From: Lentisphaerota bacterium
GTDB lineage: Bacteria; Verrucomicrobiota; Kiritimatiellia; CAIQIC01; JAGNIJ01
Assembly: GCA_052033915.1 (NCBI GenBank)
Contig: JBPOJF010000013.1
Location: 78,400-142,399, forward strand
DNA: 64,000 nucleotides
Direction of reading: 5' to 3'
The notes below the pieces were generated by a model. The model ran no database searches and was not told the DNA's origin. It saw only the letters and a program-made list of their open reading frames with translations. The stretch's first letter is position 1. Every line of letters starts with the position of its first letter. Positions 22,433-56,677 of the stretch are shown piece by piece. Made by a program: the position numbers and the translations under genes.

Positions 22433-22436
22433 CCGC

Positions 22437-24410: not shown

Positions 24411-24450
24411 GTGCAGGCCCTCCAAGATAGAAGTAATATGACGGGGGATA

Positions 24451-32583: not shown

Positions 32584-33386
32584 GACAGACCTCCCGTGAA
32601 CCAGCGGCCCAGCAGATCGGCAAGATTCCATGTCCGCGCCGCGGCGAAGAACACCGTCCACCCGAGCACGAACGCCGCATCCGCCCGACCTGCGGGTGTC
32701 GGGTCAAGGACGCGGATTTCCCCAGCGAAACCGCGCGACATCATCGCGCGATAGACGCGATCCGCGCGAGCCATCGAACGCAGAAGCAGGTGGCCCACGG
32801 CTGAGCCGTACACGCGCAGCGGGACGGCGGCCGAGCCGGCGGCGCGAATCTGCATGCCGCGCCGCATCCGCGAACCTTCAGCCGCGACGACGAACAGATA
32901 GCGGTAAAGGAACAACAGTTGGACGACGAACACGCGGGGCAGACCCATCCGCTCCAGCCCGGCGCATAAACGATTCATGCCCGTACACGCCACGAGAACG
33001 AGCGCCGCGCTCACCGTCAGGACGAAGCGGACGAGGATGGAGGCGAACGAGAACCAACCTCCGGTGACGACCCGCCCGCCGATGGCCGCGACAGGCTCGC
33101 GGTCCAGGAATGGATTGAACATCCCGATCACGACGGCGAACGGCGCAGCGATGAGAATCTTCCGGAGCAGATACCCTGACGGGATCCGCCCCAGCGACAT
33201 GAGCGCGAGGGGGTAGACAAAAAACGGCATCAACGCGGACACTTCGTAGCGCGGGAACGACATCACAAATACGATGAAGAGGAGGGTGGTGACCGCCTTG
33301 GCCCGCGCATCGAGCCGGTGCAAAGGCGTATCCAACCGGCCCAACTCATCCATACGGCCGATTTCGATCCATTCTCCAGGACTCAA
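32580..33386 (-). CDS. cbiQ: ECF transporter transmembrane (T) component CbiQ
   Basis: ~250 aa, 5-6 TM helices, 'LDARAKAVTTLLFIVFVM' and 'RRGMQIRAAG' (conserved R-rich cytoplasmic loop of EcfT/CbiQ). Confidence 0.75.
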   Translation of the reverse strand: MSPGEWIEIGRMDELGRLDTPLHRLDARAKAVTTLLFIVFVMSFPRYEVSALMPFFVYPLALMSLGRIPSGYLLRKILIAAPFAVVIGMFNPFLDREPVAAIGGRVVTGGWFSFASILVRFVLTVSAALVLVACTGMNRLCAGLERMGLPRVFVVQLLFLYRYLFVVAAEGSRMRRGMQIRAAGSAAVPLRVYGSAVGHLLLRSMARADRVYRAMMSRGFAGEIRVLDPTPAGRADAAFVLGWTVFFAAARTWNLADLLGRWFTGGLS

Positions 33387-33453
33387 GGGTTCCGCCTTGT
33401 TTCCGACAAGAATCCGCGCGGTTTCCGAGTCTCATCCATCGCTCGCCGACCGT

Positions 33454-34536
33454 CTATGACTCCCCAGAACCCATGATCACACTTTGCGAAGTGTGATCAT
33501 GCCTGTCCCTCGGCGCTTGACCCCGCTTCAACACCCAGCCGACCGCGCACGCCAACATCAGCGTGATCGCACCACCCACGAGTCCCGACACGGAAGTCCC
33601 CGCGCTCACCGCGGGCCAGGAGGCCGCCTGCTCCTCCGACTCGGCTGCCTCGGCGCTCGATTTGAATCCGTAGTCCGGCAGAAACGCCGTTTTCTCCTGC
33701 ACCGATGAGAGTTCCTTGTGCACTCCGCTCTCCGAACCAGAGACCTCCTCCGTTCCGATGACCTTCGCGATCGACCACTCCAGTCCGTCAGGATGCGTTG
33801 AGGCGAACCAACTGGCGACTCCGCCCACAACCACCGCGGCAATCAGCAGGCCGATCAGGACCGGCCGCAAGCTGACGCGCGTCCCCGCAGCCGCTTCCGC
33901 GGCCGGCAAAGCCTCCGGCCGCGCGCGGGCAACAAACGAGACGACAACCGCCGTGGCCAGGCCCTCGACAATTCCGATCGCCAGGTGAATGGGCGACATC
34001 AGCAGGACAAACACGCCGAACGGCAACGCCGTAATCCCGGATGCTTTGGTCTCGAGCACGACGCTGAACGCTCCGAGTTGGAGCCCCACGACCGCGGCAA
34101 CGATTGCCGCCACCCATGCGCGCGGCGTTCCGTGCTGATCCTTCGTGATCGCCCGGTAGACAAAGGGATACGCGACGAACGCGGGGTAAAACCCAAGGTT
34201 GAAGATATTGCAGCCCAGCGCCAGCAAACCGCCATCCGCGAAGAACAGCGCCTGCACCGTCAGCACCGAGGCAATCACCAGGAATGCCGCGTACGGCCCC
34301 AGCAGGATCGCCAGGATCAGCCCGCCGCCGAGATGGCCGCTCGAACCCGCGCCCGGAATCGTGAAGTTGATCATCTGCGCGGCGAAGATGAACGCGCCGA
34401 GCACGCCCATCATCGGAACCAGGTTATCGCGCATCGTCAGCCGCACTTTCCGCGCGCAATACGCGATCAACCCCGCGCTCGCGGCCCACATCGTCCCGCC
34501 CACGGCGGGGGAAATTAAAGCATCGGCCATGTGCAT
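33454..34536 (-). CDS. cbiMN: Fused CbiM-CbiN (NikMN-like) Ni/Co ECF substrate-capture component
   Basis: Starts 'MHMADALIS' (CbiM N-terminal MH motif that coordinates the metal), 7 TM CbiM core, C-terminal CbiN-like two-TM extension. The track ORF's first 114 aa are an artefact. Confidence 0.75.
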   Translation of the reverse strand: MHMADALISPAVGGTMWAASAGLIAYCARKVRLTMRDNLVPMMGVLGAFIFAAQMINFTIPGAGSSGHLGGGLILAILLGPYAAFLVIASVLTVQALFFADGGLLALGCNIFNLGFYPAFVAYPFVYRAITKDQHGTPRAWVAAIVAAVVGLQLGAFSVVLETKASGITALPFGVFVLLMSPIHLAIGIVEGLATAVVVSFVARARPEALPAAEAAAGTRVSLRPVLIGLLIAAVVVGGVASWFASTHPDGLEWSIAKVIGTEEVSGSESGVHKELSSVQEKTAFLPDYGFKSSAEAAESEEQAASWPAVSAGTSVSGLVGGAITLMLACAVGWVLKRGQAPRDRHDHTSQSVIMGSGES

Positions 34537-34538
34537 GT

Positions 34539-35318
34539 CTATTTCCCTCCAAACGTCCACTTCAGGCCGGCTGTCGCTGTGAAATCCGGCGCATCGCCCT
34601 CGATTTTCGATCCGCCCGCCACGTCGAGAACCAGATCCTCGACCACATCCCAGCGGAAGCCCGTGTTGTACTGCACCACAGTGTCCGCGCCGTCCGTCAG
34701 TTCCTTCTCGGCGAACACTTCGCCCACCCATTGCACGGCATCCGTCAACTGGTAGTCCAGCGCGACGCCGTAGTGAACCACATCGTGGACTTTTTCGTCG
34801 TCCGGCTCGCCGATCCACGAGTAGCCGGCGTTCACGTGAACGCCCGCCTTTTCCCCGAACGCCCGCGACGCCGCCCACATCAGGTCGTAGTCGGTCTCGC
34901 CGCTGCCCAGTCCTTTATCTTCGTCCGCCGTCGGAAACTTGACCGAGGGGACCAGCGCGTGCCGCGCGCCGAGTGGGCACTCCTCGAGGAACTGCCACTT
35001 GGCGTTGATCACGAGATCGCCGACCCCGCTTTCCCTGTGACGCTTCTTCGCACCGCTCTCAAGCGCCTCGTCTCGTTCCTCGAACTGTCCGCCGAAGCCT
35101 ACGCCCACGGCAAGGCCGGGCAGAACCCCGTACCCCAGCCCGACCGGGAAATCCCAATGGTCGCAATCCGAATCCCCGCCGTACACGGCCCCGGCCTCGA
35201 TCTCGAACCGGCCGGTATCCACCGGGTCCGCATCGTCAATCGTCAACGGCCTCGCGGCAAACGCCGCCCCCGCCGTCATCAGGCTCAGCGCCAAAATCGC
35301 CTCTTTGCAGATTCTCAT
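34539..35318 (-). CDS. Outer-membrane channel-like protein ('MetA-pathway/phenol-degradation-like' OM transporter family) inside the Ni uptake operon
   Basis: Signal peptide 'MRICKEAILALSLMTAGAAFA', amphipathic beta-strands, 'FEIEAGAVYGG...GLGYGVLPGLAVGVGFGGQF'. Confidence 0.5.
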   Translation of the reverse strand: MRICKEAILALSLMTAGAAFAARPLTIDDADPVDTGRFEIEAGAVYGGDSDCDHWDFPVGLGYGVLPGLAVGVGFGGQFEERDEALESGAKKRHRESGVGDLVINAKWQFLEECPLGARHALVPSVKFPTADEDKGLGSGETDYDLMWAASRAFGEKAGVHVNAGYSWIGEPDDEKVHDVVHYGVALDYQLTDAVQWVGEVFAEKELTDGADTVVQYNTGFRWDVVEDLVLDVAGGSKIEGDAPDFTATAGLKWTFGGK

Positions 35319-35320
35319 CT

Positions 35321-35758
35321 TCAGAACTCCTTTCCTGTTGTCGTGACCGTGAGTTTCCCGTGCTTCACTCCTTTGACAGCAATCAATCCGTCCGCCAGCT
35401 TCCGCACCGCCGGCGCCTTCCCGCGCACCGCCAGGACTTCCATGCAGTTGTGGTGGTCGAGGTGGATGTGAAGGACCGAGATGATCAGCCCCTCGTGGTC
35501 GTGCTGGATGTCGGTCAGCTTCGCCTGCAGGTCGCGCTTGTGATGGTCATAGACCAGCGTGATCGTGCCCGCGATCTCGCCCCCGCCCACCTCCGCCCAG
35601 TGCTCGACCAGCCGCGCACGGACCATGTCCGCCAGCGCCTGCGAGCGGTTGGCGTACCCCTTCTTCTTCGACATGGCGTCCAACTGACCCACCAGATCGC
35701 CGGCCATCGAGACGCTGAAACGAACTACCGGGTGTGCGTTCATGGTGTTACCTTTCAA
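35321..35758 (-). CDS. nikR: Nickel-responsive regulator NikR (RHH + ACT-like metal-binding domain)
   Basis: N-terminal ribbon-helix-helix 'VVRFSVSMAGDLVGQLDAM', C-terminal high-affinity Ni site 'HIHLDHHNC' (H-x-H ... H ... C). Confidence 0.8.
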   Translation of the reverse strand: MKGNTMNAHPVVRFSVSMAGDLVGQLDAMSKKKGYANRSQALADMVRARLVEHWAEVGGGEIAGTITLVYDHHKRDLQAKLTDIQHDHEGLIISVLHIHLDHHNCMEVLAVRGKAPAVRKLADGLIAVKGVKHGKLTVTTTGKEF

Positions 35759-35923
35759 GATTTTCGTAACCTTGCAACTCTTTAACCCGCTGTCAAGGCC
35801 GATGCAGGATACCGTATGCGCGCGCGGAGTTCGTCCTCATTTTCCGTATTCCGCGACATCTTCGTGGGACCACAGAGTCGCAAGGCGCAGGCCGCGCGTC
35901 TTCACCTCAAGACGAGATGATCA

Positions 35924-42523: not shown

Positions 42524-43567
42524 TCAGAAGAAAGCCTTCGCCAATTTCAGCACGCCCTGGCTCCAAGGCGTACGATGCGTGATCCCTGATCGCCCGGAAA
42601 TTCTATCGGCGTTGTCAAGGTACCAGCGATAGTTCCGAATCAGGGCTTCGCGATTGGAGAACTTCGGCTTGAACCCGAGTTTGCGTTCGGCTTTCTCGAT
42701 GGAAACGAATGATTCCTTCCCCGCCGTTTCGTAAATCCATTTGTATAAAGGCGATATACGCAGTGCTTCCAGCAACCTCAGAAGGGCGATCGCCGGCTTC
42801 TCAGGTATGGAGATGATCCGTTTGCCGTGACCCGCGGCATCCAGGACCGCTTGAAAATCGGTTCGCGGCGTGCCGTACTCGGCCGCGCCGATATTGAAGG
42901 TGTCGTTGACGATGTCGTCGGGCAGGACAGCGCACAGCCAGATGGCCTCGCACAGGTCTTCCACGTCCAAGTACTGGTACGGATTATTCCCGCTCCCCAG
43001 GATCGGGAAGTTGTGACCGTCCCGCGCCCATTCATACAGGAGAGCGAAGACGCCGAGTCGCTCCGGACCGACGAAGGACTTCGGCCGGATGACCGGCAAG
43101 ACCAGTCCGTTGCCTCGATATTCTTCGCACAGCATCTCGGCAGCGACCTTGGCTTCTCCGTAGGGCCCAACCCCATGGAGATCATCCGACTCCAACAAAG
43201 GATGATGGTCCGGAATTCCGTAAACCGCTGTCGAAGAGATATGAATCACGCGCTTGATCCCGACCCGAACCGCCTCCGCAAGCACTGTACGGGTACCTTC
43301 GACATCGGTGCTGTAGATATCGGCCGGCTTGTAGAGGGGTAACGCGGCGGCGGCATGGACAACGATATCCGCATCCTTCAAGGCCGGCCGAACATCCTCA
43401 GCACGCCGGATATCTCCTTGAATCGAACGAACGCGATCCCGCACGTCGTCATAATCAAACGGCGCCAAATCGAGAGAGGTGACTTCCTGGCCTCTGGCCA
43501 GCAAATGGCGCACAAGATTGATGCCTAGAAATCCGGCGCCGCCGGTAATCAGATATCGCTGTTTCAT
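42524..43567 (-). CDS. NAD-dependent epimerase/dehydratase (extended SDR)
   Basis: '[19 protein letters not shown]' Rossmann motif and 'YGEAKVAAE' YxxxK. Start gives an ATGA overlap with the upstream MTase. Confidence 0.75.
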
Positions 43568-44181
43568 AGGGGGGATGCCTCCCTCATAGGAACCGCTTTC
43601 ACATAGAACTCGTTCTCCGCGTCCTCCACAAAATTCACGTGGAATCCGGCGTCCCGCAAGAGAGATTGGATTCCAAGGGCGCACGGCATGCGATCATGGC
43701 GCACGACTTCAGAGAATCCGGCATGCAGCGAGTTCAGCCTGGCGCTTCCTTCCAGGTTGGCGATCACCAGTCGCCCTCCCGGCGCAAGCCAGGGGCGGAT
43801 GCGCCGCAGAATCGCGAGCGGGTTGTCGAAATGCGGGAATACCCGGAACAAGATGACCCAATCCCAACTTTCCGATTGAAGATTCACCGTTTCCGCCGCG
43901 GCGTGAACAATATCGACGTTCTCCAGATGCCCCAGTCTCAACCGGGCTTGCTCCACCATCCCGCCGCTGGCATCGAATGCCAGAACATGACCGCTGGGGC
44001 CCACCCATGTTGAGAGATACTCCGTCAACGGGCCGACACCACAGCCCGGCTCGACAACGCGTTGGCCGGTCAAGCGGCCAAGACGCCATCCCAGTCTCTC
44101 GACTTTTCGGCGATCTTCTTCGGTAAACAAGAGCGGATCCGAGCTTCTGGATACGCGATCAAAAAACTCGTTTTTTGTCAT
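43564..44181 (-). CDS. Class I SAM-dependent methyltransferase
   Basis: '[15 protein letters not shown]' motif I, '[11 protein letters not shown]', '[12 protein letters not shown]'. The track ORF 43564..44979 fuses this gene with the antisense of the permease. Real start at the internal M (ATGA overlap with the permease stop). Confidence 0.7.
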
Positions 44182-44999
44182 GAGGCGACTCCTGAAGGTT
44201 CCCGCATCCGAGACGAGCGTATGGCGCGCACGGCCAGGCTGGCGGCATAGATCAGCGAGGAGATCAACACTATGCTCGCGCCCGCCGGCCAGTTGAACAG
44301 GAACGAAACCGCGAGGCCGCCGAGCGCGGCAAGCGCGCCCAGCGACATGGACCAGATCACCACGGCCTTGTATCCGCGAGCCAGTTGCAGCGCGGCCACG
44401 GCCGGATTCGTCAGCAGGCTGTACAGCATCAGGCCGCCGACGATGTTCAAGTTGACGGTGACGGTGAATCCGCACAGCGCGATCATGGCGTAGTAGAGGG
44501 CGGTGGCATGAATGCCCGAGGCGCGCGCGATCTCGCGGTCGAACAGAACGGCCTTCATTTCCTTTCCGAACGCGGAAAGAAGCGCCAGCGGCAACAGCGC
44601 GGCCGCCGTCAGCGGCAGGAGATCGGCCCATTGCACCAGCAGGAGGTTGCCCCACATCAGGCCCAGCACTTCCGACCGGCGATTCTGGAGAATCCCGATC
44701 CCCAGGAAAGCCAGCCCCAGCGTAAGCGAGAACAGGATGCTCATGATGGTGTTGGCGTGCGTACGGGTCCTGTCGGATAGCGGGCCGATGAGAACAGCCG
44801 TTGCGAAGGAAGCCGCCAGCGCCGTCCCCAGAACGGGGGTGCCGATAAAGTAAGACAGCACCGCGCCCGCCAGGGCGGCGTGCGCCAGACAGATGCCCAT
44901 AAACGGAAGATTCAACGAGACCAGAATGAAGCCCGCCAACCCGCACCCCGCACCCCCGAGCAGGCCGGTCAGCAGCCATTTGAGCTGAAGCGGCGTCAT
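44178..44999 (-). CDS. Metal (Zn/Mn) ABC transporter permease (ABC-3 family)
   Basis: ~8 TM helices, 'ALYYAMIALCGFTVTVNLNIVGGLMLYSLL' ABC-3 core. Confidence 0.75.
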   Translation of the reverse strand: MTPLQLKWLLTGLLGGAGCGLAGFILVSLNLPFMGICLAHAALAGAVLSYFIGTPVLGTALAASFATAVLIGPLSDRTRTHANTIMSILFSLTLGLAFLGIGILQNRRSEVLGLMWGNLLLVQWADLLPLTAAALLPLALLSAFGKEMKAVLFDREIARASGIHATALYYAMIALCGFTVTVNLNIVGGLMLYSLLTNPAVAALQLARGYKAVVIWSMSLGALAALGGLAVSFLFNWPAGASIVLISSLIYAASLAVRAIRSSRMREPSGVAS

Positions 45000-45790
45000 T
45001 CGGATTCCTCCGGGACGGCCAGATAGCGCCCGCCGGATTTCACTACGCGAAGCGGCAAGTCGTACAGATCCGACAGCGGTTGGTCCTGGAGGATATCGGC
45101 CGGCGATCCGATTCGGATCAGGCGGCCGGCTTTGAGCAGGGCGACCCGCGTGATACCCGCAGGCAGGTGCCGGAGGTCATGAGTGACCATGATCACGGTC
45201 ATCTGCGTCGTCCGCCACAAGTGGCCGACGAGGAGGGTAATGGCCTCCTGCCATCGGAAATCCAGATGACCCGCAGGCTCATCCAAGAGAAGAACCTCAG
45301 GTTCCTGCGCGAGCGCGCGCGCCAAATGGGCCTTGCGCTGTTCGCCGCCGGAAAGGACGACCACGGAGCGGTCGCCCAGGGCGCCGAGTTGCGTCTCCTC
45401 CATGATGCGGTCGCAGATTTGCCGGTCGCTTTCGCGGAAGCGGCGGCCCATGCCGCGTACGCCCACACGTCCGAGTTCAACCACTTCGCGAACAGAAAGC
45501 GGCAAGACAGCGACCGGGCGGGAGTGCAGTTGAGGAACGTATCCGATGCGCCGCCGGAGACGGCCCCGCGCGCGAGGCGACAACCGCCGAACGTCCGAGC
45601 CAAGGACCTTCAGTTGCCCGTCGTATTGGATCAAGCCGGGGATCGACTGAAGAAGCGTGCTCTTGCCTGCCCCGTTGGGCCCGAGGACGGCCAGAAACTC
45701 TCCGCGCTCCAGGGAAAACGACACCTCCTTCAAGATGTCCGCACGCTGTCGGCAAACACAAAGGTTCCTGGCCTCAATGATCGGCGTCAT
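44996..45790 (-). CDS. Metal ABC transporter ATP-binding protein
   Basis: Walker A 'GPNGAGKST', signature 'LSGGEQRKAHLARAL', Walker B 'VLLLDEPAGHLD'. Confidence 0.8.
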   Translation of the reverse strand: MTPIIEARNLCVCRQRADILKEVSFSLERGEFLAVLGPNGAGKSTLLQSIPGLIQYDGQLKVLGSDVRRLSPRARGRLRRRIGYVPQLHSRPVAVLPLSVREVVELGRVGVRGMGRRFRESDRQICDRIMEETQLGALGDRSVVVLSGGEQRKAHLARALAQEPEVLLLDEPAGHLDFRWQEAITLLVGHLWRTTQMTVIMVTHDLRHLPAGITRVALLKAGRLIRIGSPADILQDQPLSDLYDLPLRVVKSGGRYLAVPEESE

Positions 45791-46610
45791 GGAACCCCTC
45801 GAGGAGCGCGCCGACATTCTTTGCCACTAAAGCCCAATACGCCCCTTCCCGGCCGCTTTCCGGAAAGTTGCTGAGCATGATGCCCGGCAGGTCGGCGGCT
45901 TCCGACAGGGCTTTCAAGTGCTGTGGACCCCATTGCAGATTCCCAATCACCGCCTCCGCTCCGGCCGTCTTCGCCATGTTGACCGCACGGTTTAACTGCC
46001 AGGCCGATTCATCCGTTCCCGCGTCGAACACGGCGACTATGTTGAGGCCGATCCATCGGCAGAAGTCGTTCTGGTAGCGAGCGCACAAGACCTTGCGCTC
46101 CCGGAGGCGCTCCGTTTGAAGTCGGCTGCTCTGTTCCGTATCCACGGCCTGACTCTGAATGGACTGCAACCCTTGGCGAATCAGGTCCTCTTTCTCAGGC
46201 CATTCACGAACCAGCCGGTCCGTCAGTTCAGCGCACATCGCAACATAATTGCTTGGAATGGTGAAGGCCGGAAGCGAGGCGAGCGAAACAACGCGCCCTG
46301 TATCGAGCCCGGATTTGGAAATTCCCATATCGAGCCCGGCCTGGTAATCGTGCCGGATAAACAGACGTGCGGACGCCATGTCGGCCACTTGTCCCGGCTC
46401 AAGGTCGAAATGACCGGGACATGAACCGGGGGGCAACAGGCGTACGACTTCGACGCCGGGCCCCATGAGGTCTCTCACCGCCGCCTCGATCAGCGTGGTG
46501 GTCACCACGACCTTCGGCGTCTCCGTTGCGATTCCGACGGTCCGGGCATGCAACGAGACAAGCGCTGTGAGGGTGAGCCAGATGAATACAGATAGACACC
46601 GTTTTTTCAT
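45774..46610 (-). CDS. Small periplasmic metal-binding protein (TroA/ZnuA-like, cluster-9 SBP)
   Basis: Signal peptide 'MKKRCLSVFIWLTLTALVSLHA', 'VVVTTTLIEAAV' and 'LLPPGSCPGHFDLEP' resemble cluster-9 SBPs. Assignment by eye. Confidence 0.45.
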   Translation of the reverse strand: MKKRCLSVFIWLTLTALVSLHARTVGIATETPKVVVTTTLIEAAVRDLMGPGVEVVRLLPPGSCPGHFDLEPGQVADMASARLFIRHDYQAGLDMGISKSGLDTGRVVSLASLPAFTIPSNYVAMCAELTDRLVREWPEKEDLIRQGLQSIQSQAVDTEQSSRLQTERLRERKVLCARYQNDFCRWIGLNIVAVFDAGTDESAWQLNRAVNMAKTAGAEAVIGNLQWGPQHLKALSEAADLPGIMLSNFPESGREGAYWALVAKNVGALLEGFHDADH

Positions 46611-47272
46611 AGGGTTTGAATGGATGCTCCATCGCGCGGTTGAATGCGCGCGATGACGCCGTTGTCACCGCGTCCGCAATACCAGGTTCGTGCGCTGAGC
46701 GGCGCGAAGCCGCTGAGGGCTTTGGCAGAGCTCTGGCGCGGCCCCAGACTCCAAACAACCCACGCAAGGGGCGATTCCCTGCTGTCATGATAGCGGCCGC
46801 TGGCGCTCTGGCAGGAGGGAAAATCGTCCGGGACATAAACCTGAAACCCATCGCTCTGCAAGGAACCGTTGAGGTAATACAGCCCCGGCGCGACATACTT
46901 GTACGTGTGGCCCGGATTGAACGGGTCTTCCATCATGGAGGACACGCCTTTCTTGTTGCCGGGCGGCAGGTAGCCCGAAGTGACCAATTCCGAAGGCAAC
47001 TCGCACCAGTGTTCTCTCTCGGCAGTGTTGCATGACACCCTGACGGGCGGGTACTTCTGGTGATCTGTGTAATACAGGGTCAGCGCCACCTCGATCTGCC
47101 GCAATTCGGTACAGGTTTTGGCAACGCGCCCCTTCTCCATCGCGGAACCCAGAACGGGAACCAGAAACCCGCAGAGGACGAGAATCAGCGCGATCACCAC
47201 GAGCAATTCGACCAGCGTAAACCCGCGAGTCCTTCCTTTGCTTCTTCCTGCCGCATTGCTCATGGGGATCAT
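46607..47272 (-). CDS. Prepilin-type N-terminal cleavage/methylation domain protein with DUF1559-like C-terminus (type II secretion pseudopilin-like)
   Basis: 'RGFTLVELLVVIALILVL' is the class III signal peptide / N-methylation motif. 'ALTLYYTDHQKYPP' and the C-terminal region resemble the DUF1559 family expanded in the PVC superphylum. Confidence 0.7.
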   Translation of the reverse strand: MIPMSNAAGRSKGRTRGFTLVELLVVIALILVLCGFLVPVLGSAMEKGRVAKTCTELRQIEVALTLYYTDHQKYPPVRVSCNTAEREHWCELPSELVTSGYLPPGNKKGVSSMMEDPFNPGHTYKYVAPGLYYLNGSLQSDGFQVYVPDDFPSCQSASGRYHDSRESPLAWVVWSLGPRQSSAKALSGFAPLSARTWYCGRGDNGVIARIQPRDGASIQTL

Positions 47273-47328
47273 CCGGAAGGAACGGGGCGCGTCCAGGCCG
47301 CCCCGTTCCGGATTCCAATGGCGCCGAG

Positions 47329-48438
47329 TTAGTTCCGTTGTCTCAAGCGGTAGTAGCGCAGTTGCTCCGACGGCTCTTCTTCCACCGCAATCCATTTGAC
47401 CGGCGGCACTGTGACGTTGGTCCAACCGGCCGAATCCAGCAGGTTGGTGGTGTATTCGAGAATGTAGTTCGTGTAGGTTCCGGACCAATACACCAACGTC
47501 TTGTCGCCCGTCATCACGAACTGGAGCGTCGGCCCGATTTCCTGGACGAACAGCTCATATCCGAACCTGCCATCCGACCCGGTTCCAGATTCCTGATTGA
47601 TGATTCCGACCGCTGAAAACCAATCGTCCGGCATGGGCCCAATATCCGTCAGCGGCATGCGAAGACTGAAATATCGTCCGTTGCCGTCTGTGACTGTGCA
47701 CAGCCGGTCGCCCCAGTTCGTCTTTCCCCATCCTGTGGAGCCGTAGTCGTTCGTTGCCAGACGGATGCCTTCGATGCGAACGCGCATGCCTTGATAGTAT
47801 TCCCCGCCGGATTGACGCGTCGCGTCGAAGATCTGATTCGTGCCTTCCGACACCAGGTCGGTCAGCTCAATAACTTCGGGATCAGGGAGGCCGCGACCGG
47901 CCTCGACCAGTGTGATGTAGAAGTTGTGCGCGTCGTTTGTTCGATGCGCTTCATTGATATTCCGTTTCCCGCCGTAGAACAGCGACTTGTTCGCCGTGAT
48001 CTCCACCAGGTCGCCCTTGCGGAAATAGTGAGCGGTATTCGTGTCGTAGTTCAGCCGGTACATTTCGTTGGACCACTCCGCTTCGGAGTAGAGGTTGCCT
48101 GCCGGAATCCAAGAACCCAGGCTGCTGTAGTTCTGCCCCATCCAGAGCGCCGTGCCGCCTCGATCGCCGGCTTCCGCGGCCTGGAAGAAGACCTGCCACT
48201 GAGCGCCCATCCGCCTCCCGCCCTCGGCCCCCGGATCCCACGCGAAGTCCAGCATCTCCTCGGGGTTGTTGAGAATCACCCCGCGGATGGTGAACGGGTG
48301 CGCGCCGGTCCACGCGCTGACCCCCATCTCCGTCACGGATTGCAAGTTGGTGTGCGTTTCTGTCTGCGCCTGCGCCGTACCCATCCCCGCGCCAAGCATC
48401 ACGACCGCCGCGAGGGCACTGCTGATCGTCCTCTTCAT
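47329..48438 (-). CDS. Secreted hypothetical protein, first gene of the putative metal-regulated operon
   Basis: Signal peptide 'MKRTISSALAAVVMLGAGMGTAQA'. No recognised domain. C-terminal tail '...SEQLRYYRLRQRN' resembles the tail of the 1498-aa protein. Confidence 0.45.
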   Translation of the reverse strand: MKRTISSALAAVVMLGAGMGTAQAQTETHTNLQSVTEMGVSAWTGAHPFTIRGVILNNPEEMLDFAWDPGAEGGRRMGAQWQVFFQAAEAGDRGGTALWMGQNYSSLGSWIPAGNLYSEAEWSNEMYRLNYDTNTAHYFRKGDLVEITANKSLFYGGKRNINEAHRTNDAHNFYITLVEAGRGLPDPEVIELTDLVSEGTNQIFDATRQSGGEYYQGMRVRIEGIRLATNDYGSTGWGKTNWGDRLCTVTDGNGRYFSLRMPLTDIGPMPDDWFSAVGIINQESGTGSDGRFGYELFVQEIGPTLQFVMTGDKTLVYWSGTYTNYILEYTTNLLDSAGWTNVTVPPVKWIAVEEEPSEQLRYYRLRQRN

Positions 48439-48463
48439 CGAAATACCCGCCTCCTTCGTTATA

Positions 48464-48489
48464 GTGTTACGTATTTATAGTTTCGTAAC
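48464..48489. promoter_or_regulatory. Inverted repeat TGTTACG-N12-CGTAACA (plus a direct TTATAGT repeat), ~30 nt upstream of the secreted-protein gene
   Basis: Seen directly in the divergent intergenic region. Confidence 0.3.
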
Positions 48490-48590
48490 ATCTCACATCC
48501 GCGCGATGGTGTCAACTCTCCGATCGGGCGGCTCCGCCCGCTCCCGGAACATGCGCTCAGGTTCCTGTTGAACCGGATCGCCCGATTGTG

Positions 48591-48612
48591 TATTGATAAT
48601 GCATTATCAATA
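48591..48612. promoter_or_regulatory. Fur/Zur-box-like perfect palindrome TATTGATAATGCATTATCAATA
   Basis: 22-bp perfect palindrome matching the Fur-box core GATAATGATAATCATTATC, 40 nt upstream of znuA (+) and ~150 nt upstream of the divergent minus-strand operon. Confidence 0.55.
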
Positions 48613-48651
48613 ACAAGCGCGCCTTCCGGGGCGCGTCCGGAGCGACCAGGT

Positions 48652-49560
48652 ATGAGGAAACGATGCGCATGGCTGCTGGCGGCATGGCTCGCGGGGCCGG
48701 CGGGGGCCGCGGAGGACCCGTTCCGGATCGTCACCTCGTTCTACCCGATTCACATCGCCGTTCTGAACGTGGCGCGAAACATCCCCGGCGTCGAAGTGAT
48801 CAACCTGACCCCTCCCGTCACCGGCTGCCTTCACGAGTACTCGATGACGCCGCAGGACCTCCGGACGCTGGCCCGGGCGGACGCGTTCGTGGTCAACGGG
48901 CTGGGCATGGAATCCTTCCTGGACGAGGCGGTGAAGCGCCTGCCGCGCCTGCGTGTCATCGACGCCAGTCGCGGCATCGAGCCCCTGGACGACAATCCCC
49001 ATGTCTGGGTCAGCGTCACGCTGGCCATCCAGCAGGTGCGGACCATCGCCGACGCCCTCGAGGAGTTCGACCCGGACCACGCAGAGCGCTATCGCGCGAA
49101 CGCGGACGCCTACATCGCGCAGTTGGACGCCCTGCGCCGAAAAATGCGTGAAGGATTGGACGGCGTGAAGAACCGCCACATCGTCACGCTCCACGAAGCC
49201 TTCCCGTACTTCGCGCAGGAGTTCGGCCTGCGCGTCATCGCCGTGATCGAGCGCGAGCCCGGCTCGGAGCCCGGCGCGCGCGAGCTGGCGCAAACGATCG
49301 ACCTCGTCAGGCAAACGGGCGCGCCCGCCCTGTTTGCCGAACCGCAATACCCGGCCAAGGCGATCGATACCATCGCCGCGGAAACCGGCGCGAAGGTGTA
49401 CACACTGGACCCGGCCGTGACCGGCCCGATGGAGCCGGGAGCGTATGTGGGGATCATGGAAACGAATTTGGAGACGTTGATAGCGGCGTTGAAGGAAGAA
49501 CCCCGTCCAAGGACCGAAGTCGAAAGTCCCAAGCAACCAACCTTGGACATGGGACTTTAG
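48652..49560 (+). CDS. znuA: Zinc/manganese ABC transporter substrate-binding protein (ZnuA/TroA family)
   Basis: Signal peptide, metal-site motifs 'GCLHEYSMTPQD', 'DDNPHVWVSV', 'TLHEAFPYFAQEF'. The last ~18 codons are encoded by a copy of the dispersed repeat. Confidence 0.8.
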   Translation: MRKRCAWLLAAWLAGPAGAAEDPFRIVTSFYPIHIAVLNVARNIPGVEVINLTPPVTGCLHEYSMTPQDLRTLARADAFVVNGLGMESFLDEAVKRLPRLRVIDASRGIEPLDDNPHVWVSVTLAIQQVRTIADALEEFDPDHAERYRANADAYIAQLDALRRKMREGLDGVKNRHIVTLHEAFPYFAQEFGLRVIAVIEREPGSEPGARELAQTIDLVRQTGAPALFAEPQYPAKAIDTIAAETGAKVYTLDPAVTGPMEPGAYVGIMETNLETLIAALKEEPRPRTEVESPKQPTLDMGL

Positions 49561-49588: not shown

Positions 49589-50389
49589 ATGGACCACAAC
49601 ATCACATCCGGCCATGCCGGCGCGTGCTGCACGCGGATCGAAGACCTCGGCGTCCGCATCGGCAACTCGATCATCCTCGAGAACGTCGATCTCCATCTTC
49701 ATTGCGGACAGCTCATCGCGCTGATCGGTCCGAACGGCGCGGGCAAGACAACGCTCCTGCGCGCGATGCTGGGCGAACTGCCGCACTCCGGCAAACTGCA
49801 TTTCCTCCCGGTTCGCAAGACGGGCGGGGGACCCTCGCCGAGAATCGGCTACGTGCCCCAGAAGATCGAGATGGATCTCCTCGCGCCGATCACCGTGCGC
49901 GATCTATTCGCCGGCGCCGTCTCGCGCCGGCCGATCTGGCTGGGCTGCCGCCGGAAGAGCCTGAAAGGGTCCCTCGACATGCTGTCCGTCGTCGGCGCGG
50001 ACGAACTCCTCGAGAAGAAGCTGGGTCAGCTCTCCGGCGGACAACTCCAGCGCGTCCTCCTCGCGCTCGCGCTAACCCCTGTTCCGGACATTCTTCTCCT
50101 CGACGAGCCGGTCGCCGGCGTGGATCAGGCGGGCATCGAGATGTTCTACACGATGGTGTCTCAGTTCCGCCGCTCGTTCGACCTCGCCATCCTCCTGATC
50201 TCGCACGACCTGCCCGCCATCGCGCGCTTCGCGGATCGGATGGTCTTCCTGAACCGGCGAATCCTGGCCGACGGCACGCCGGCCGAGGTTCTGTCCAACC
50301 CGCGGGTCATTCAGACGTTCGGCTACGATTTCTCCGCCGCCGCCGGCCCGCCCGCCGCCGCGCCCGTCCACCATGGAGGCGCATCGTGA
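49589..50389 (+). CDS. znuC: Zinc ABC transporter ATP-binding protein
   Basis: Walker A 'GPNGAGKTT', signature 'LSGGQLQRVLLALAL', Walker B 'ILLLDEPVAGVD'. Confidence 0.8.
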   Translation: MDHNITSGHAGACCTRIEDLGVRIGNSIILENVDLHLHCGQLIALIGPNGAGKTTLLRAMLGELPHSGKLHFLPVRKTGGGPSPRIGYVPQKIEMDLLAPITVRDLFAGAVSRRPIWLGCRRKSLKGSLDMLSVVGADELLEKKLGQLSGGQLQRVLLALALTPVPDILLLDEPVAGVDQAGIEMFYTMVSQFRRSFDLAILLISHDLPAIARFADRMVFLNRRILADGTPAEVLSNPRVIQTFGYDFSAAAGPPAAAPVHHGGAS

Positions 50390-51219
50390 ACGCGTGGCAC
50401 GCCTGGATCGCGCAACTGCCGTTCGAGTGGGCGCAGTACGCGTTCATGCACAACGCCCTGCTGGCCCTCATCCTGCTCTCGCCGCTCTTCGCCCTGATCG
50501 GCTGCATGGTGATCAACAACCAGATGGCGTTCTTCTCCGAGGCCATCGGCCATGCCGCGCTGACCGGCATCGCGATCGGCGTCGTGGCCGGGATCGCCAA
50601 TCCGCTCTGGAGCATGATTCCCGTCGCCGTCCTCCTGGCCTTCGCCATCACCCTGCTGCGCCATTACAGCGCGGCGTCGGCCGACACGATCATCGGCCTC
50701 GTCATGGCGTTCGCCGTCGCGCTCGGCGTGGTGCTCCTTTCGCGCGGCGGGGGGTTCGCGAAGTATTCCCGCTACCTCATCGGCGATATCCTGACTATCG
50801 CCCCCGGCGAAATCGCCGGCGCCGCGATCCTGCTCGCCGGGATCGCCGGCATCTGGCTCGTCTTCTTCAACCGGATCGCGCTGACATTCCTGAACCGCCC
50901 GCTCGCGAGGAGCCGCGGCATCAACGTGTGGATGGTCGAAGGGCTGTTTGCGGCGGCCGTGGCGCTCGTCGTCACCGTCAGCATTCCGTGGATCGGCCTG
51001 CTGGTGATCAATTCCCTGCTGATCCTCCCGGCCGCCGCGGCCCGGAACCTGGCCCGCAACACGGCGCAGTACCACGCGATCGCGATCGCCGTCAGCCTCC
51101 TCTCCGGAATCCTCGGCCTGATCGGGTCGTACTACTGGAACACCGCCTCCGGCGCCACCGTGGTGCTCGTCGCCATGGGCTTCTTCATCCTGTCGCTCGC
51201 CGGCCGCATCGCGCGGTAG
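50386..51219 (+). CDS. znuB: Zinc ABC transporter permease (ABC-3)
   Basis: GTG start overlapping the znuC stop. 8 TM helices, 'AFFSEAIGHAALTGIAIG' ABC-3 motif. Lies inside the long track ORF 49624..51219. Confidence 0.75.
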   Translation: MNAWHAWIAQLPFEWAQYAFMHNALLALILLSPLFALIGCMVINNQMAFFSEAIGHAALTGIAIGVVAGIANPLWSMIPVAVLLAFAITLLRHYSAASADTIIGLVMAFAVALGVVLLSRGGGFAKYSRYLIGDILTIAPGEIAGAAILLAGIAGIWLVFFNRIALTFLNRPLARSRGINVWMVEGLFAAAVALVVTVSIPWIGLLVINSLLILPAAAARNLARNTAQYHAIAIAVSLLSGILGLIGSYYWNTASGATVVLVAMGFFILSLAGRIAR

Positions 51220-51380: not shown

Positions 51381-52748
51381 ATGATCAACCATCCGTGCAT
51401 GTTATATAAAACGACTTATGTGCACAGGCGACATGCCGCCGTACGCACAACCGACTTCGTTTTCAACCAGTTGATTCCGTACATCGGAAACAAGCGTAAG
51501 TTGCTGGACCTCATTGCACAGGCCTTGAAGCACTCCACGAAGTCGGGGGTCCCGACTTTTCTGGACCTCTTCGCAGGCAGCGGTGTCGTGGCCCGTCTTG
51601 CCAAGACGCTGGGATATCGAGTCATCGCCAACGACTGGGAGCCATATGCGAAAGTGATAAACGGCTGCTACATCGGGAACAACACCCCGCCCGATTTCAA
51701 GGCGCTGGGCGGATACGAGAAGGCCCTGGCCCGCCTGAACGGCCTGCCTCCCCGCGTGGACTGGATTACCGATCACCTGTGCCCGCGAGACGACGAAAAC
51801 TACGACATTGAGGTGGATCGCATGTTCTACATGCGCAAGAACGGCATGCGGATCGATGCGATCCGCCACCGGATTCTCGAATGGCGCGATTCCGGCACTA
51901 TCGACGATAGTGAGCAGGACTGTCTGCTTGCCCCCTTGCTCTATCAGGCCTGCTACACGAGCAACACGAGCGGGGTATTCAAAGGATTCCACAATGGATG
52001 GGGCGGCCAGACCCGGACGGCGCTCTACCGCATCGCCGGCGACCTGCGCCTGACGCCGGCCGTGTTCTTCGACAACGGCCAGGACAACCAAGTGCTTTGC
52101 GACGACGCGCAACGCGTCGCCGAAGACCTGCGCGCCGACGAACTGGATGTGGTGTATCTTGACCCGCCGTACAATCAGCATCCCTACGGCAGCAACTATC
52201 ATGTGCTGAATACGATTGCGCTGTGGGATAAACCGGAACTGAGCCAGACGATTACACCCGGGACCAAATCGGCCATCCGCCGGGACTGGAGAGCCGAAAG
52301 GCGAAGCGCGTACAACCACGCCGACGAGGCGGCCGGAGCTTACGCGAAGCTTCTGCAAACACTCAACTCCCGTTTCATTCTGACAAGCTACAGCACCGAC
52401 GGCTTCATCCCCCTGGAGAAGATGCTGGAAGCCAACATCCGTCGCGGACATGTCCGCATCGAGATGAAGGGCTACAAGCGATATCGGGTCAGCTCGCAAC
52501 GGTTCTCCAACAAACCCATGAACGTCGAGTTTGTCGTTGTCCTCGACACGCACAGGGCATCCGACGTCTCGTTGGATGAACTCCATCGCTCGATTACGGC
52601 CAAGGAAGAATCTTTGCTGAACGGTCACAGGGAATACGCGATTCAGAAGCCGGCGCAACCGGCCCGGTTGGAAGGAGCCAGGGCGGCTCGCCTGCGGCGG
52701 GCGAGCCCGGAACGAGGCATAGCGTTATGCAAATCAGCCACAGCTTGA
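51381..52748 (+). CDS. D12-class (Dam-like) N6-adenine DNA methyltransferase, orphan
   Basis: N-terminal 'LIPYIGNKRKLL' (D12 motif X), motif I 'DLFAGSGVV', motif IV 'YLDPPYN'. ~455 aa with a long C-terminal region. No restriction endonuclease adjacent. 22-nt overlap with metF. Confidence 0.65.
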   Translation: MINHPCMLYKTTYVHRRHAAVRTTDFVFNQLIPYIGNKRKLLDLIAQALKHSTKSGVPTFLDLFAGSGVVARLAKTLGYRVIANDWEPYAKVINGCYIGNNTPPDFKALGGYEKALARLNGLPPRVDWITDHLCPRDDENYDIEVDRMFYMRKNGMRIDAIRHRILEWRDSGTIDDSEQDCLLAPLLYQACYTSNTSGVFKGFHNGWGGQTRTALYRIAGDLRLTPAVFFDNGQDNQVLCDDAQRVAEDLRADELDVVYLDPPYNQHPYGSNYHVLNTIALWDKPELSQTITPGTKSAIRRDWRAERRSAYNHADEAAGAYAKLLQTLNSRFILTSYSTDGFIPLEKMLEANIRRGHVRIEMKGYKRYRVSSQRFSNKPMNVEFVVVLDTHRASDVSLDELHRSITAKEESLLNGHREYAIQKPAQPARLEGARAARLRRASPERGIALCKSATA

Positions 52749-53611: not shown

Positions 53612-53690
53612 TCCAAAGCCCAAAATCGAAAGTCCAATGTCCAAAGTCAGCGGAACGTGCTTAGGACTTTAGACCTTGGACTTACTCGTA
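53612..53690. repeat. Copy 3 of the dispersed inverted-repeat element (ATCCAAAGCCCAAAATCGAAAGTCCAATGTCCAAAGTC ... TTAGGACTTTAGACCTTGGACTTAC)
   Basis: Seen directly between the convergent metF and macB. Confidence 0.5.
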
Positions 53691-55658
53691 GCGCAGCGCC
53701 TCGATCGGATTCAGCAGCGCTGCCTTGCGCGCGGGCCACAGGCCGAACACGATGCCGATCAGCGCCGAGAACAGCGTGGCCAGGAGCACCGACGGCAGCG
53801 ACACGCTTGTGGCCCAGCCCGCGAACTGCGACATGCCGGCCGCAACGCCGCACCCCAGCGCGACGCCGATCAATCCGCCCAGGAGGCTGATCACCAGCGC
53901 CTCGGTGAGGAACTGCGCGAGGATGTGGCGCCGCCGCGCGCCCACGGCTTTCCGCAACCCGATCTCGCGCGTGCGTTCCGTGACGGACACGAGCATGATA
54001 TTCATGATGCCGATGCCGCCGACAACCAGCGAGATGACCGCGATCGACGCAAGGAGCATGGACATCGTCCGGCTGGTCGCGGTCAGCGTCTTCCGGAACT
54101 CGGCCAGGTTACGGATCGTGAACGCATCTTGGGCTTTGGCCGGCGGAATTCGATGCCGCCGGCACATCGCATCCCGGATGGCCGTCTGCGCCGAGTCGAT
54201 TTCGGGTTCGCTGGCAATTTCGATACTGACCTGGTCGATATAATCCTTGCCGAACAGGCGGTACATGGCCGTCGTGATGGGGATGATAATCACGTCGTCC
54301 TGGTCGCGCCATCGGTCCGCCCCTTTCTCGGGCAGGATGCCGACAACCTGGAAAGAGATCCGGTTGATCCGGATGAACGCGCCGATGGGGTTCCGGTCGC
54401 CGAACAGTTCTTTCATCGGGGTCAGCCCGATCATCGCCACGCGTGAACGCTGGAGCACGTCGCCCTCCGTCACGAACCGCCCGACCTGCGGAACGGACGC
54501 GCGAATCATCGCGTAGTCCGGCAGCGTCCCGGTGACCTGGGTGCTCCAGTTCTTCCCTTCGTACACGACCTGCGCGCTCCCGTTGACCATGGGCGCGATG
54601 CGGGTGATGGACGGCACCTCTTTCGGCAGTGCGCGAATGTCTTCGAGTGTGATGCGGCTCGCGGCCTGCACCGCGATGCCGCGATCCCGGCTCGAGCCCG
54701 GCCTCAGCATCAGCGAGTTGGAGCCCATGTCCTCCAGTTGCTTGCGAATGGATTCGCTCGCGCCCGTCCCCAGCGCCAGCATCGCGATCACCGCGCTGAC
54801 GCCGATCAGGATGCCCAGCATCGAGAGCCCCGTGCGCACCTTGTTGGCGCGCAATGTCCGCAGCGCCTGCCGGACCAGACCGACGCCGCGGCGCACGCGC
54901 ACGAACAGGGGAACGCCGAACATCGAACGCCGACCGTCCGGCTTCGGCGTCGGGCGCCGGGGGTCGGGCGTCGGACGTTCGAGCCTCGCGCGCTTGCGTT
55001 CGTCCGAAACCACCGTCCCGTCCCGCAGCGTGATGACCCGTTCGGCATACGCGGAAATTTCCGCTTCGTGCGTGACGAGGATCACCGTTTTTCCCCGGCG
55101 GTGAAGCTCCGCAAGAACGGCCATAATCTCCGTCGCGCTGGCGGAATCCAGGTTCCCTGTGGGCTCGTCGGCGAGGATCAGCTCGGGGTCGTTCACCAGT
55201 GCGCGGGCGATCGCCACACGCTGCTGCTGGCCGCCGGACAGTTCGTTCGGCTTGTGCGTCATGCGACGTTCCATGCCCGTATCGCGAAGCAGTTTCTCCG
55301 CCCGGGCCATGTCCACGCGGCCCGCGGAATACAACATCGGCATGACCACGTTTTCCCGGGCGGTCGTCCGCGAAAGAAGGTGGAACTGCTGGAAGACAAA
55401 GCCAACGCTCCGGCTGCGCAGGACGGCGAGGTCGTCTTCGCCCAGGCTGGACACCTCGCGGCCCATCAGGCGGTAACTTCCCGAATCCGGCCGGTCCAGC
55501 AGGCCAATCACGTGCATCAGCGTCGATTTGCCGGAGCCGGACGCCCCCATGATCGCGACGAACTCGCCGCGCTCGATCGTCAGATGGATTCCGTTCACGG
55601 CCGACACCGTGGTGTCGCCCATGCGATATTCGCGGCGGATGTTGGACAACTCGATCAT
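53682..55658 (-). CDS. macB: MacB-type ABC transporter (fused ATPase + FtsX-like permease)
   Basis: Walker A 'GASGSGKST', signature '[15 protein letters not shown]', C-terminal 4-TM FtsX domain with a large periplasmic loop. Confidence 0.8.
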
Positions 55659-55663
55659 CGGGA

Positions 55664-56626
55664 CTACCGCGTCCTGCCCCGGCCGAACGGCGTGAACGGG
55701 CTCGTCTTCTCGTCACTGCCGCCGGGCGCCTGCACCTTCGGCGACAACACCGACTCGCCTTCCGCGAGGCCGCCGGCGATTTCAACATTCTTCCCGTCGG
55801 TCTTGCCGACGGCGACTTCGACGGACTTCCGTCCATTCGGATTTCGCGAATCGCGCTTCCACACCACCCGGCGCCCGTCCTCGTCATGCACCGTCTCCGC
55901 GGGAAGAATGAGCACATTCGTCGCCGTCACCGCGGTGAACACGACGCTGGCCGTCATACCGCTTCGCACGAAGCCGGGCATCTTCGCGGGAAGGACTTCC
56001 ACCTTGTAGATGGTCACGTTCTGAACCGTTTCCGCCTCATACGAGATCCGGCTGACCGCCGCGTCGAACCGCTCGTCGGGATACGCGTCCAGCGTCACCG
56101 TGACGGGCCGGCCCAGGGAGACCCGGGCGAGATCCGTTTCGTCCACCTGCGCTTCCACAATGAGCACGTCCGACATCACCAGCAGCGTGTCGCCGGCGCC
56201 CACGGTCTGACCGGGCTCGACGTCACGCGCGATGATCGTTCCGTCGAGCGGAGCGATGATCGGCGTGGCCTTGTAGATTTCCTGCCAGTGCGCAAGCGCC
56301 TCGGGCCCCCGCGCGCGGGCGGCATCCAGCAGCGCGGCGCGGTCGGTCGAACTCATCCACGCGATCGTCTGGCCCGCCTTGACCGGCTCCCCTTCCTGCA
56401 CCCGCACCTCCTCCATGCGCCCCGCGATCGGCGGCTTGATCTCAAGCCGGTTCCGGGGACGGACTTCTGCTGTGGATTGGACGGTCACTTCGATGTTTCC
56501 GCGCCCGACCGTGACGGCGCCGTAGGTCTGTTCCGCCCCGGTGTTTTTCTTCGCGCTCGACGTCCAGCAGGCATAGCCGGCGGCGAGTACGGCGAAAACC
56601 ACGATCCAGAATCCGAGTTTTTTCAT
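55664..56626 (-). CDS. macA: Periplasmic adaptor subunit (HlyD/MacA family)
   Basis: Signal anchor 'MKKLGFWIVVFAVLAAGYAC', lipoyl/beta-barrel motifs 'GEPVKAGQTIAWMSS', 'IIAPLDGTIIARDVEPGQTV'. Confidence 0.75.
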   Translation of the reverse strand: MKKLGFWIVVFAVLAAGYACWTSSAKKNTGAEQTYGAVTVGRGNIEVTVQSTAEVRPRNRLEIKPPIAGRMEEVRVQEGEPVKAGQTIAWMSSTDRAALLDAARARGPEALAHWQEIYKATPIIAPLDGTIIARDVEPGQTVGAGDTLLVMSDVLIVEAQVDETDLARVSLGRPVTVTLDAYPDERFDAAVSRISYEAETVQNVTIYKVEVLPAKMPGFVRSGMTASVVFTAVTATNVLILPAETVHDEDGRRVVWKRDSRNPNGRKSVEVAVGKTDGKNVEIAGGLAEGESVLSPKVQAPGGSDEKTSPFTPFGRGRTR

Positions 56627-56677
56627 AAACTGCCTCCGTTGCAGAAGCGCCTTCGAGACGCGGCACGGATGCCGCAT

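Follow-up and report, generated by a model that had tools for sequence, protein, structure and literature searches.

The 64,000-nt stretch analysed here (the window), part of contig JBPOJF010000013.1 of a Lentisphaerota bacterium, carries a tightly packed operon of seven minus-strand genes (42524-48438) that appears to serve metal import. The genes, g1 to g7 in the direction of transcription, encode a secreted protein, a prepilin-type protein, the binding protein, ATPase and permease of an ABC importer, a methyltransferase and an epimerase-like protein (Table 1). The junctions from g2 through g7 are overlaps of 4-17 nt each, with an ATGA overlap between g6 and g7 that couples g7 translationally; g1 and g2 are 56 nt apart, a gap that widens to 65 nt with the second ATG of g2, the start chosen in public gene calls. 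The permease and ATPase genes overlap and are encoded together with the binding protein, an arrangement that fits an ABC-3 (ZnuBC-type) importer. A scan for sigma-70 promoters and terminators gave no signal above shuffles, and none within the operon that would split it. The view of these genes as a single, tightly coupled metal-import operon, put forward in an initial annotation of this DNA, is upheld by the overlaps, the ABC-3 importer genes and the lack of a predicted internal promoter or terminator. Family matches agree with the identities it gave to the importer, methyltransferase and epimerase genes, and its upper limit of 56 nt for intergenic space holds with the first g2 start.

The g1-g2 gap (47273-47328, minus) contains a perfect 11-bp GC-rich stem, GGAACGGGGCG...CGCCCCGTTCC. 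As an attenuator or terminator this hairpin was rejected: its folding is no better than that of shuffles (z -0.96), it lacks a T tract and the gap is unconserved, being only 18 nt in the related locus L001. No Rfam riboswitch family was found in seven related loci, where the only hit was one unrelated tmRNA.

Which regulator controls the operon? The initial annotation proposed Zur or Fur, and this is not supported, given a NikR box beside the start of the operon and nikR genes in or next to orthologous operons. The box has one mismatch to the published consensus GTGTTAC-[N13/14]-GTAACAC, found by comparative genomics upstream of nikMNQO operons (Tables 4 and 11, PMC545781). The inverted repeat TGTTACG-N12-CGTAACA, which had already been noticed by the minus-strand start, is indeed present at 48465-48490 and is the NikR box read one base wider. 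Its spacer is AT-rich and includes TATAAAT (minus strand). Allowing up to two mismatches, there are exactly two NikR-box matches in the whole window, against 0.02 expected. The other one abuts the start of nikR, which heads a nikR-OMP-nikMNQO operon (31840-35743, minus) 13 kb from the g1 operon. The predicted regulator scores far above its family cut-off, matches the solved P. horikoshii NikR (2bj1) with 142 bits and keeps the nickel-ligand motif H-x-H-x5-C; on this sequence evidence, it is a genuine NikR. The window thus holds a NikR gene and two NikR boxes, one of them on a classical nickel transporter of the energy-coupling factor (ECF) type and the other 26 nt before g1. With a box upstream of g1 and a true nikR both in the window and beside orthologous loci, control of the minus-strand operon by NikR, and so by nickel, is highly probable. 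Canonically, NikR acts primarily on nickel uptake (PMC545781, PMC2667541).

Two further observations concern these promoters. In four independent promoters (window 48500-48520, minus; L086; L087; window nikR) a TTGAC(A) element precedes the NikR box by about 16-26 nt, which leaves it too distant from the AT-rich spacer of the box for a standard -35/-10 pair; the copy before g1 is a perfect TTGACA. The PF13557 protein of the nikR-nikMNQO operon resembles MetA-pathway/OmpP-like proteins and may supply the envelope step for that ECF transporter.

Table 1. Features of the g1 operon, its divergent neighbours and the nikR operon, in window coordinates
Feature	Position	Strand	Evidence or remark
g1, secreted protein	47329-48438	minus	369 aa, signal peptide, no Pfam/NCBIfam match
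g2, prepilin-type protein	46607-47272	minus	218-221 aa, prepilin motif G↓FTLVE
g3, divergent ZnuA-fold (cluster A-I) substrate-binding protein	45774-46610	minus	PF01297, 70 bits
g4, ABC transporter ATPase	44996-45790	minus	PF00005, 102 bits
g5, ABC-3 family permease	44178-44999	minus	PF00950, 155 bits
g6, class I S-adenosylmethionine (SAM) methyltransferase, cytoplasmic	43564-44181	minus	Methyltransf_11/25 matches
g7, SDR epimerase/dehydratase family	42524-43567	minus	PF01370, 136 bits
NikR box GTGTTAC-N14-GTAACAt	48464-48491		ends 26 nt upstream of g1 ATG
Perfect 22-bp Fur/Zur-like palindrome TATTGATAATG/CATTATCAATA (TATTGATAATGCATTATCAATA)	48591-48612
znuA	48652-49560	plus	242 bits, canonical
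znuC	49589-50389	plus	ABC_tran, 86 bits
znuB	50386-51219	plus	ABC-3, 173 bits
Second NikR box GTGTTAC-N14-GTAACct	35745-35772		abuts nikR start
nikR	35321-35743	minus	NF003381, 183 bits (cut-off 105)
Outer-membrane channel-like protein	34539-35318	minus	PF13557, in nikR operon
NikM/N (CbiM+PDGLE)	33454-34542	minus	Pfam
NikQ	32580-33386	minus	Pfam
NikO	31840-32661	minus	Pfam
Fur-family regulator, 138 aa	31394-31810	plus	PF01475, 73 bits

Related loci show how far this arrangement extends. A g1 profile was used to fetch 83 non-redundant genomic loci from PVC-group bacteria. In 78 of them g2 adjoins g1, nikR is adjacent in 52 and ABC genes in 33; nikR-g1-g2 operons without a transporter gene also occur (20+14 loci). 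A secreted protein followed by a pilin-like protein at the head of a metal operon had been called an undescribed arrangement, and this is supported: the two genes form a conserved pair, and the literature searched contains no description of a g1-g2/NikR system. L001 (69% identity) keeps the gene order of the window up to the methyltransferase, continues with nikR-cbiMNQO, and has the box aTGTTAC-N14-GTAACAC 46 nt upstream of its g1. Among the closest relatives (75-76% identity), L086 and L087 have the order nikR-g1-g2-binding protein-ATPase-permease-methyltransferase and L088 has nikR-g1-g2, all three with NikR-type boxes directly upstream of nikR. The relaxed pattern NN[AG]TTAC-N13/14-GTAA[TC]NN has 28 sites in 1.31 Mb of loci, and 25 of these are concentrated in the regions preceding g1 or nikR, which make up 2.2% of that sequence. 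In the nikR-g1-g2 operons of one whole clade, TTATTAC-N14-GTAATAA stands at about position -30 relative to nikR. The module is also present in a named isolate, Limisphaera sp. 4302-co (L029).

The position of g1 and g2 ahead of the importer genes can be taken by a different kind of protein. Distant g3 homologs in three genomes (Latescibacterota, Planctomycetes and a third) lie in operons of the order TonB-dependent receptor-binding protein-ATPase-permease, two of which continue with a methyltransferase. A second census was anchored on CPGHFD, the signature motif of g3-type binding proteins, and comprised 63 loci with enough upstream sequence. Upstream of the binding protein, 44 of these have g2, accompanied by g1 in 30 out of the 36 whose sequence extends far enough to include it, and 12 have a TonB-dependent receptor; receptor and g2 are never found together (0/63). 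The other seven have neither front end, three of them carrying another prepilin-type gene. Operons of the form nikR-receptor-binding protein-ABC-methyltransferase are found in L107, L167 and L170, and NikR-type half-sites precede six of nine evaluable receptor-type operons. In Helicobacter, TonB-dependent receptors for nickel under NikR repression are known. Most simply read, a single nickel-uptake cassette has two alternative front ends, g1-g2 and the TonB-dependent receptor.

The other prepilin genes in front of the CPGHFD binding protein lie at 5945-6967 of L120, 3468-4187 of L123 and 3163-3882 of L125. The L120 prepilin has, judged by eye, a DUF1559/H-X9-DG-like C-terminus (...NVLYMDGH...). 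The cassette may thus have pilin-like front ends of several kinds.

Structural models indicate what the two leading proteins look like. The AlphaFold2 (AF2) model of g1, with a predicted local distance difference test score (pLDDT) of 81.8, shows two OB-fold barrels followed by a small C-terminal beta domain. The tandem OB module (about residues 25-300) is conserved and the C-terminal domain variable; a profile search, which gave 442 clusters at 50% identity, likewise found residues ~10-302 conserved and a variable C-terminus. The homologs (n=871) are unannotated and come mostly from metagenome-assembled genomes of Kiritimatiellia and Verrucomicrobiota. Foldseek returned no structural match to the whole g1 chain, and a weak one to 4hsp, the DUF3299 protein PA4066 (E 0.014). 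In g1 and 30 homologs, Pfam and NCBIfam searches found only C-terminal PEP-CTERM or dockerin domains, in a few of the proteins. Since PEP-CTERM signals or dockerins replace the C-terminal domain in these homologs, their sequences point to the cell surface as the place where the OB module would work.

The model of g2 (pLDDT 89.3) shows pilin architecture: a GspG-like pseudopilin fold with an enlarged C-terminal globular domain. The protein begins with the class III signal peptide RG↓FTLVELLVVIALILVL (PF07963, 28.6 bits against a cut-off of 21.2), and 28 homologs all keep F18 and E22 of its invariant G↓FTLxE motif. Signal peptide and fold together place g2 in the pilin/pseudopilin superfamily. 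Its family matches are N_methyl and a weak T2SSG/GspG, the GspG equivalog scoring 39 bits against a cut-off of 89. Of the earlier description of g2 as a prepilin-type DUF1559 protein, the prepilin part stands and the DUF1559 label has to be dropped: no PF07596 (SBP_bac_10) or H-X9-DG model in Pfam or NCBIfam matches, the C-terminus (...GDNGVIARI...) lacks the His-X9-DG spacing, and the protein is GspG-like instead.

The binding protein g3 is a divergent ZnuA-type protein with a remodelled site. Its match to PF01297 covers residues 34-271 and well exceeds the cut-off of 29 bits, though at 70 bits it is weak beside the 242 bits of the plus-strand ZnuA, in keeping with the cluster A-I (ZnuA/TroA) fold; a sequence search against the PDB gave no match. 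The canonical His/His/His-or-Glu/Asp ligands are missing. In alignment with the plus-strand ZnuA of the window, which retains the His/His/His/Asp positions, g3-type proteins have lost three of the four, the residues found there being G66/H67 (shifted by one), S/D/E, R/H-Q180 and N248. The family shares an invariant Cys64-Pro-Gly-His67-Phe-Asp69 instead, as well as His87/Asp88, Gln180 and Asn248, among which C64, H67, D69 and H87 are candidate ligands. At least 600 metagenome stretches contain the motif CPGHFD[LIM]xP, and public annotation names these proteins 'zinc ABC transporter substrate-binding protein'. Under NikR control, a site made up of Cys, His and Asp would fit Ni(II) or a nickel chelate, and we infer that nickel is the substrate of the importer.

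The two genes at the end of the operon differ in their conservation. A g6 homolog is present in 32 of the 33 ABC-bearing loci and in eight of the 12 receptor-type loci, which confirms the proposed link between methyltransferase and importer. Its invariant residues and motifs are ExGCGxG, D70, FPHF and H153; its best NCBIfam matches are all far under cut-off and assign no substrate. The epimerase g7 has no ortholog-level match beside the module in the 83 loci or in the closest relatives, and was therefore rejected as a member of it. Of the two enzymes suggested as possible modifiers of a metallophore, the methyltransferase is the one that travels with the transport genes. It is possible that g6 makes or processes a nickel ligand. 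Other candidate enzymes are found in the neighbourhood of related operons: beside the nikR-g1-g2-ABC-methyltransferase operon of L086 (1326-3687 and 9076-9837) lie two genes with DUF364 ('putative heavy-metal chelation'), of which one also carries DUF4213, together with a metallo-beta-lactamase-fold gene and a second methyltransferase, and in L088 a metallo-beta-lactamase-fold gene follows g2. These neighbours may form a small-molecule (nickel ligand) pathway.

The divergent side of the locus holds a second set of regulatory signals. The intergenic region between g1 and znuA is 213 nt long and contains both repeats, the NikR box and the 22-bp Fur/Zur-like palindrome. The latter has the form TGATAAT-GC-ATTATCA, with classical Fur/Zur half-sites around a two-base centre, and it is as perfect as the initial annotation reported; of 200 block shuffles, only six produced a perfect palindrome with arms of at least 11. 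The element is not placed at the minus-strand promoter: it precedes the znuA ATG by 40-61 nt, while the g1 ATG is 153-174 nt away (50 and 164 nt when measured from the centre of the element), and the NikR box and the TTGACA element intervene on the g1 side. Its recurrence upstream of other metal genes had been set as a test, and none is seen in the window or the related loci: the 16-mer core TGATAATGCATTATCA is single-copy in the window at up to three mismatches, no other 7-2-7 or 7-1-7 relative occurs there within the same limit, and TGATAATNNATTATCA has no match in 85 related loci (L001 to L085). Juxtaposition of znuABC to the g1 operon is itself confined to the window and L001, where znuABC is divergent as in the window, yet without the palindrome. 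As an operator of the minus-strand operon the palindrome was rejected on its position, 153 nt from the g1 ATG, and its lack of conservation; most likely, going by placement, it is the operator of the divergent znuABC. A candidate binder is the Fur-family protein encoded convergently with nikO, which has HHHH and CxxC motifs and scores below all NCBIfam equivalog cut-offs for subtype.

Between the palindrome and the znuA start, at 48618-48635, lies a GC hairpin, CGCGCCTTCCGGGGCGCG, which scores like a terminator when read on the minus strand. It may serve to insulate the divergent promoters from each other, or else belong to the znuA leader. In L001 the divergent znuCBA is followed by an ArsP_1 permease and a DUF1980 pair (3699-5320), whereas the window has a DNA methyltransferase there, so that the zinc-side neighbourhood differs between close relatives.

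Together, these observations suggest a model in which the operon is expressed when nickel is scarce, and in which, under nickel sufficiency, nickel-loaded NikR would block its transcription from a box placed between the TTGACA element and the ribosome-binding site of g1. Outside the cytoplasmic membrane, g1, at the surface or in the periplasm, and g2 would capture nickel or a nickel chelate and pass it to g3. The CPGHFD motif plus His87 would provide g3 with a Cys/His/Asp site for Ni(II) or a nickel chelate, in place of the His3Asp site for zinc or manganese, and g4 with g5 would import the cargo across the inner membrane. In the cytoplasm g6 would act on a small molecule tied to import, g7 would be a lineage-specific addition, a local passenger, and the 22-bp palindrome would govern the divergent zinc-type znuABC. 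Repression by NikR and the assignment of the palindrome to znuABC are both read from the arrangement of sites and genes. Taken as a whole, a NikR-repressed nickel-acquisition operon with a g1-g2 front end and a remodelled ZnuABC-type importer is on balance the probable interpretation. The capture role of g1-g2, to which position and co-occurrence point, is more tentative, about evenly poised and if anything leaning against. The initial annotation's idea of a surface metal-scavenging apparatus is retained to that extent, extracytoplasmic metal capture being the best reading of the pair, with nickel now in the place of zinc or iron. It is possible, though doubtful, that in PVC-group bacteria (Kiritimatiellia, Verrucomicrobiota and some Planctomycetota) the pseudopilin and the tandem-OB protein form a new outer-envelope metal-uptake device that replaces the TonB-dependent receptor and feeds a nickel branch of the ZnuABC family.

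Several points weigh against this interpretation. In 31 of the 83 g1 loci no nikR lies near enough to be seen, and a strict box is missing from many; the NikR consensus is itself a comparative-genomics prediction for delta-proteobacteria. The TTGACA and TATAAA elements before g1 are 30 nt apart, too far for a standard -35/-10 pair, and the sigma-70 scan was unconvincing. To our knowledge, cluster A-I/ABC-3 systems serve zinc, manganese and iron, and none is known for nickel. No nickel site is evident in g1 or g2, the only invariant soft ligands of g1 being His29, His165 and Cys247. His29 is conserved in 113 of 117 homologs and stands a few residues past the predicted signal cleavage site, but an ATCUN-like N-terminal X-X-His in the mature protein is possible in only about 39 of the 113 and was discarded as a family trait. 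No type II secretion or type IV pilus assembly genes were found near g2 (window open reading frames scanned from ~13.5 kb to the end). Finally, that g1-g2 and TonB-dependent receptors exclude each other shows two alternative layouts of the operon, and does not show that they do the same job.

Could the palindrome nonetheless be the real switch? In the original proposal the operon answers to zinc (or iron) starvation through Zur or Fur bound at the palindrome, and g1-g2 scavenge zinc. The palindrome is real, rare and Fur/Zur-like, the window has a Fur-family gene, the importer is structurally of the ZnuABC family, and public annotation assigns its binding protein to zinc. The element lies far closer to znuA than to g1, however, and is missing from L001 and the other related loci; orthologous operons carry nikR and NikR boxes, and g3 lacks the His3Asp site that the plus-strand ZnuA keeps. 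Zinc or iron control of this kind is very unlikely. A combination of both regulators, in which NikR gates the g1 operon and, in this genome only, a Fur-family regulator at the palindrome additionally modulates it, for instance by occluding an upstream promoter or by way of the architecture of the DNA, would accommodate the presence of the two sites in one short region, the perfect TTGACA between them and the lack of a convincing predicted promoter for g1. Evolutionary conservation gives it nothing, as znuABC adjoins the operon only in the window and in L001, which has no palindrome, and such dual control is improbable.

A different objection accepts NikR and questions the role of g1-g2. The pair might be a surface or secreted module that is simply expressed under nickel limitation, for example an adhesin, an OB protein that binds glycans or nucleic acids and is displayed on a pseudopilus, or a substitute that spares nickel, and the ABC system alone would handle nickel. 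OB folds typically bind oligonucleotides or oligosaccharides, g1 has few invariant His or Cys residues, and the transporter-less nikR-g1-g2 operons would be in keeping with such a role. The same minimal loci, on the other hand, have g1-g2 as the only genes co-transcribed with nikR, and the pair occupies the exact slot of the TonB-dependent receptor before the same cassette, never together with it. A role apart from nickel capture is thus rather unlikely, and the NikR-repressed nickel operon with g1-g2 as its front end is retained as the preferred interpretation.

Elsewhere in the window, a 32-bp perfect palindrome, GAAAAGGATGGCGGGTACCCGCCATCCTTTTC (23379-23410), lies between the convergent genes of an FAA hydrolase (22383-23294) and a DJ-1/PfpI protein (23838-24470) and looks like a bidirectional terminator. 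A 1498-aa open reading frame at 26270-30766 (plus), with a third-position GC content (GC3) of 0.89, has only a short match to an alpha-amylase catalytic domain. Directly after znuB comes a D12-class N6-adenine DNA methyltransferase (51402-52748, plus) with no evident restriction partner nearby, then MTHFR; a MacAB-TolC-type efflux set (53682-57955) lies on the strand opposite to the DNA methyltransferase.

How the PVC superphylum takes up nickel is all but uncharted; among the few Planctomycetes and Verrucomicrobia genomes of a 2009 survey, no known nickel transporter was reported (PMC2667541). Should the nickel interpretation be true, hundreds of binding proteins have been wrongly assigned by automatic annotation to a 'zinc ABC transporter', and the cluster A-I/ABC-3 transporters include a nickel-linked branch marked by its own Cys/His/Asp site. 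An orphan prepilin-like protein would also gain a first function, and a testable one, in a superphylum rich in such proteins. The choice between a receptor and an OB-protein/pseudopilin pair suggests a different route for the metal across the outer envelope. As Limisphaera sp. 4302-co is a named isolate, the system should be testable in culture.

How does this operon compare with known systems? Nickel uptake under NikR is of a known kind; the transporter family, the remodelled binding site and the OB/pseudopilin pair in the place of a receptor appear, from the literature searched, to be undescribed. The operator is of the same type, GTGTTAC-N13/14-GTAACAC, as in NikMNQO/NikKMLQO and NikABCDE systems, and nikR is adjacent in many genomes, as it is there. 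Like NikMNQO/NikKMLQO, which have NikK and NikL, the operon encodes extra extracytoplasmic parts (PMC545781, PMC2667541). Its transporter, in contrast, is of the ABC-3/ZnuA type and not of the ECF or Opp type of NikMNQO and NikABCDE, and its OB protein and pseudopilin are unlike NikK, NikL and NikA. With ZnuABC/AztABCD it shares a cluster A-I binding protein, an ABC-3 permease, an ATPase and a secreted accessory protein in a metal-starvation operon. In importers of that type the periplasmic metallochaperones are AztD and ZinT, whose folds are a beta-propeller or lipocalin-like, whereas here the accessories are an OB protein and a pilin, the regulator is NikR and not Zur, and the binding residues have changed.

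The leading proteins have more distant counterparts. FrpB4 of Helicobacter pylori, a NikR-repressed TonB-dependent nickel receptor, likewise represents an outer-envelope nickel step under NikR, but g1 and g2 are not beta-barrels and have no TonB box or plug, so that their equivalence is read from position and exclusivity only. With GspG (EpsG/PulG), its best structural matches at 27-28% identity, g2 shares the class III signal G↓F-x-x-x-E, the long N-terminal helix and the beta-sheet head; it differs in being about 80 residues longer, in having no secretion genes nearby and in belonging to a metal-uptake operon. Small periplasmic OB-fold proteins are known from metal systems, among them CusF and PA4066 (DUF3299, of the Pseudomonas aeruginosa PA4063-4066 operon). 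As an exported OB protein encoded with a metal transporter g1 resembles these, without sequence similarity, and it differs from them in its two OB domains, its C-terminal domain and its obligatory pseudopilin partner.

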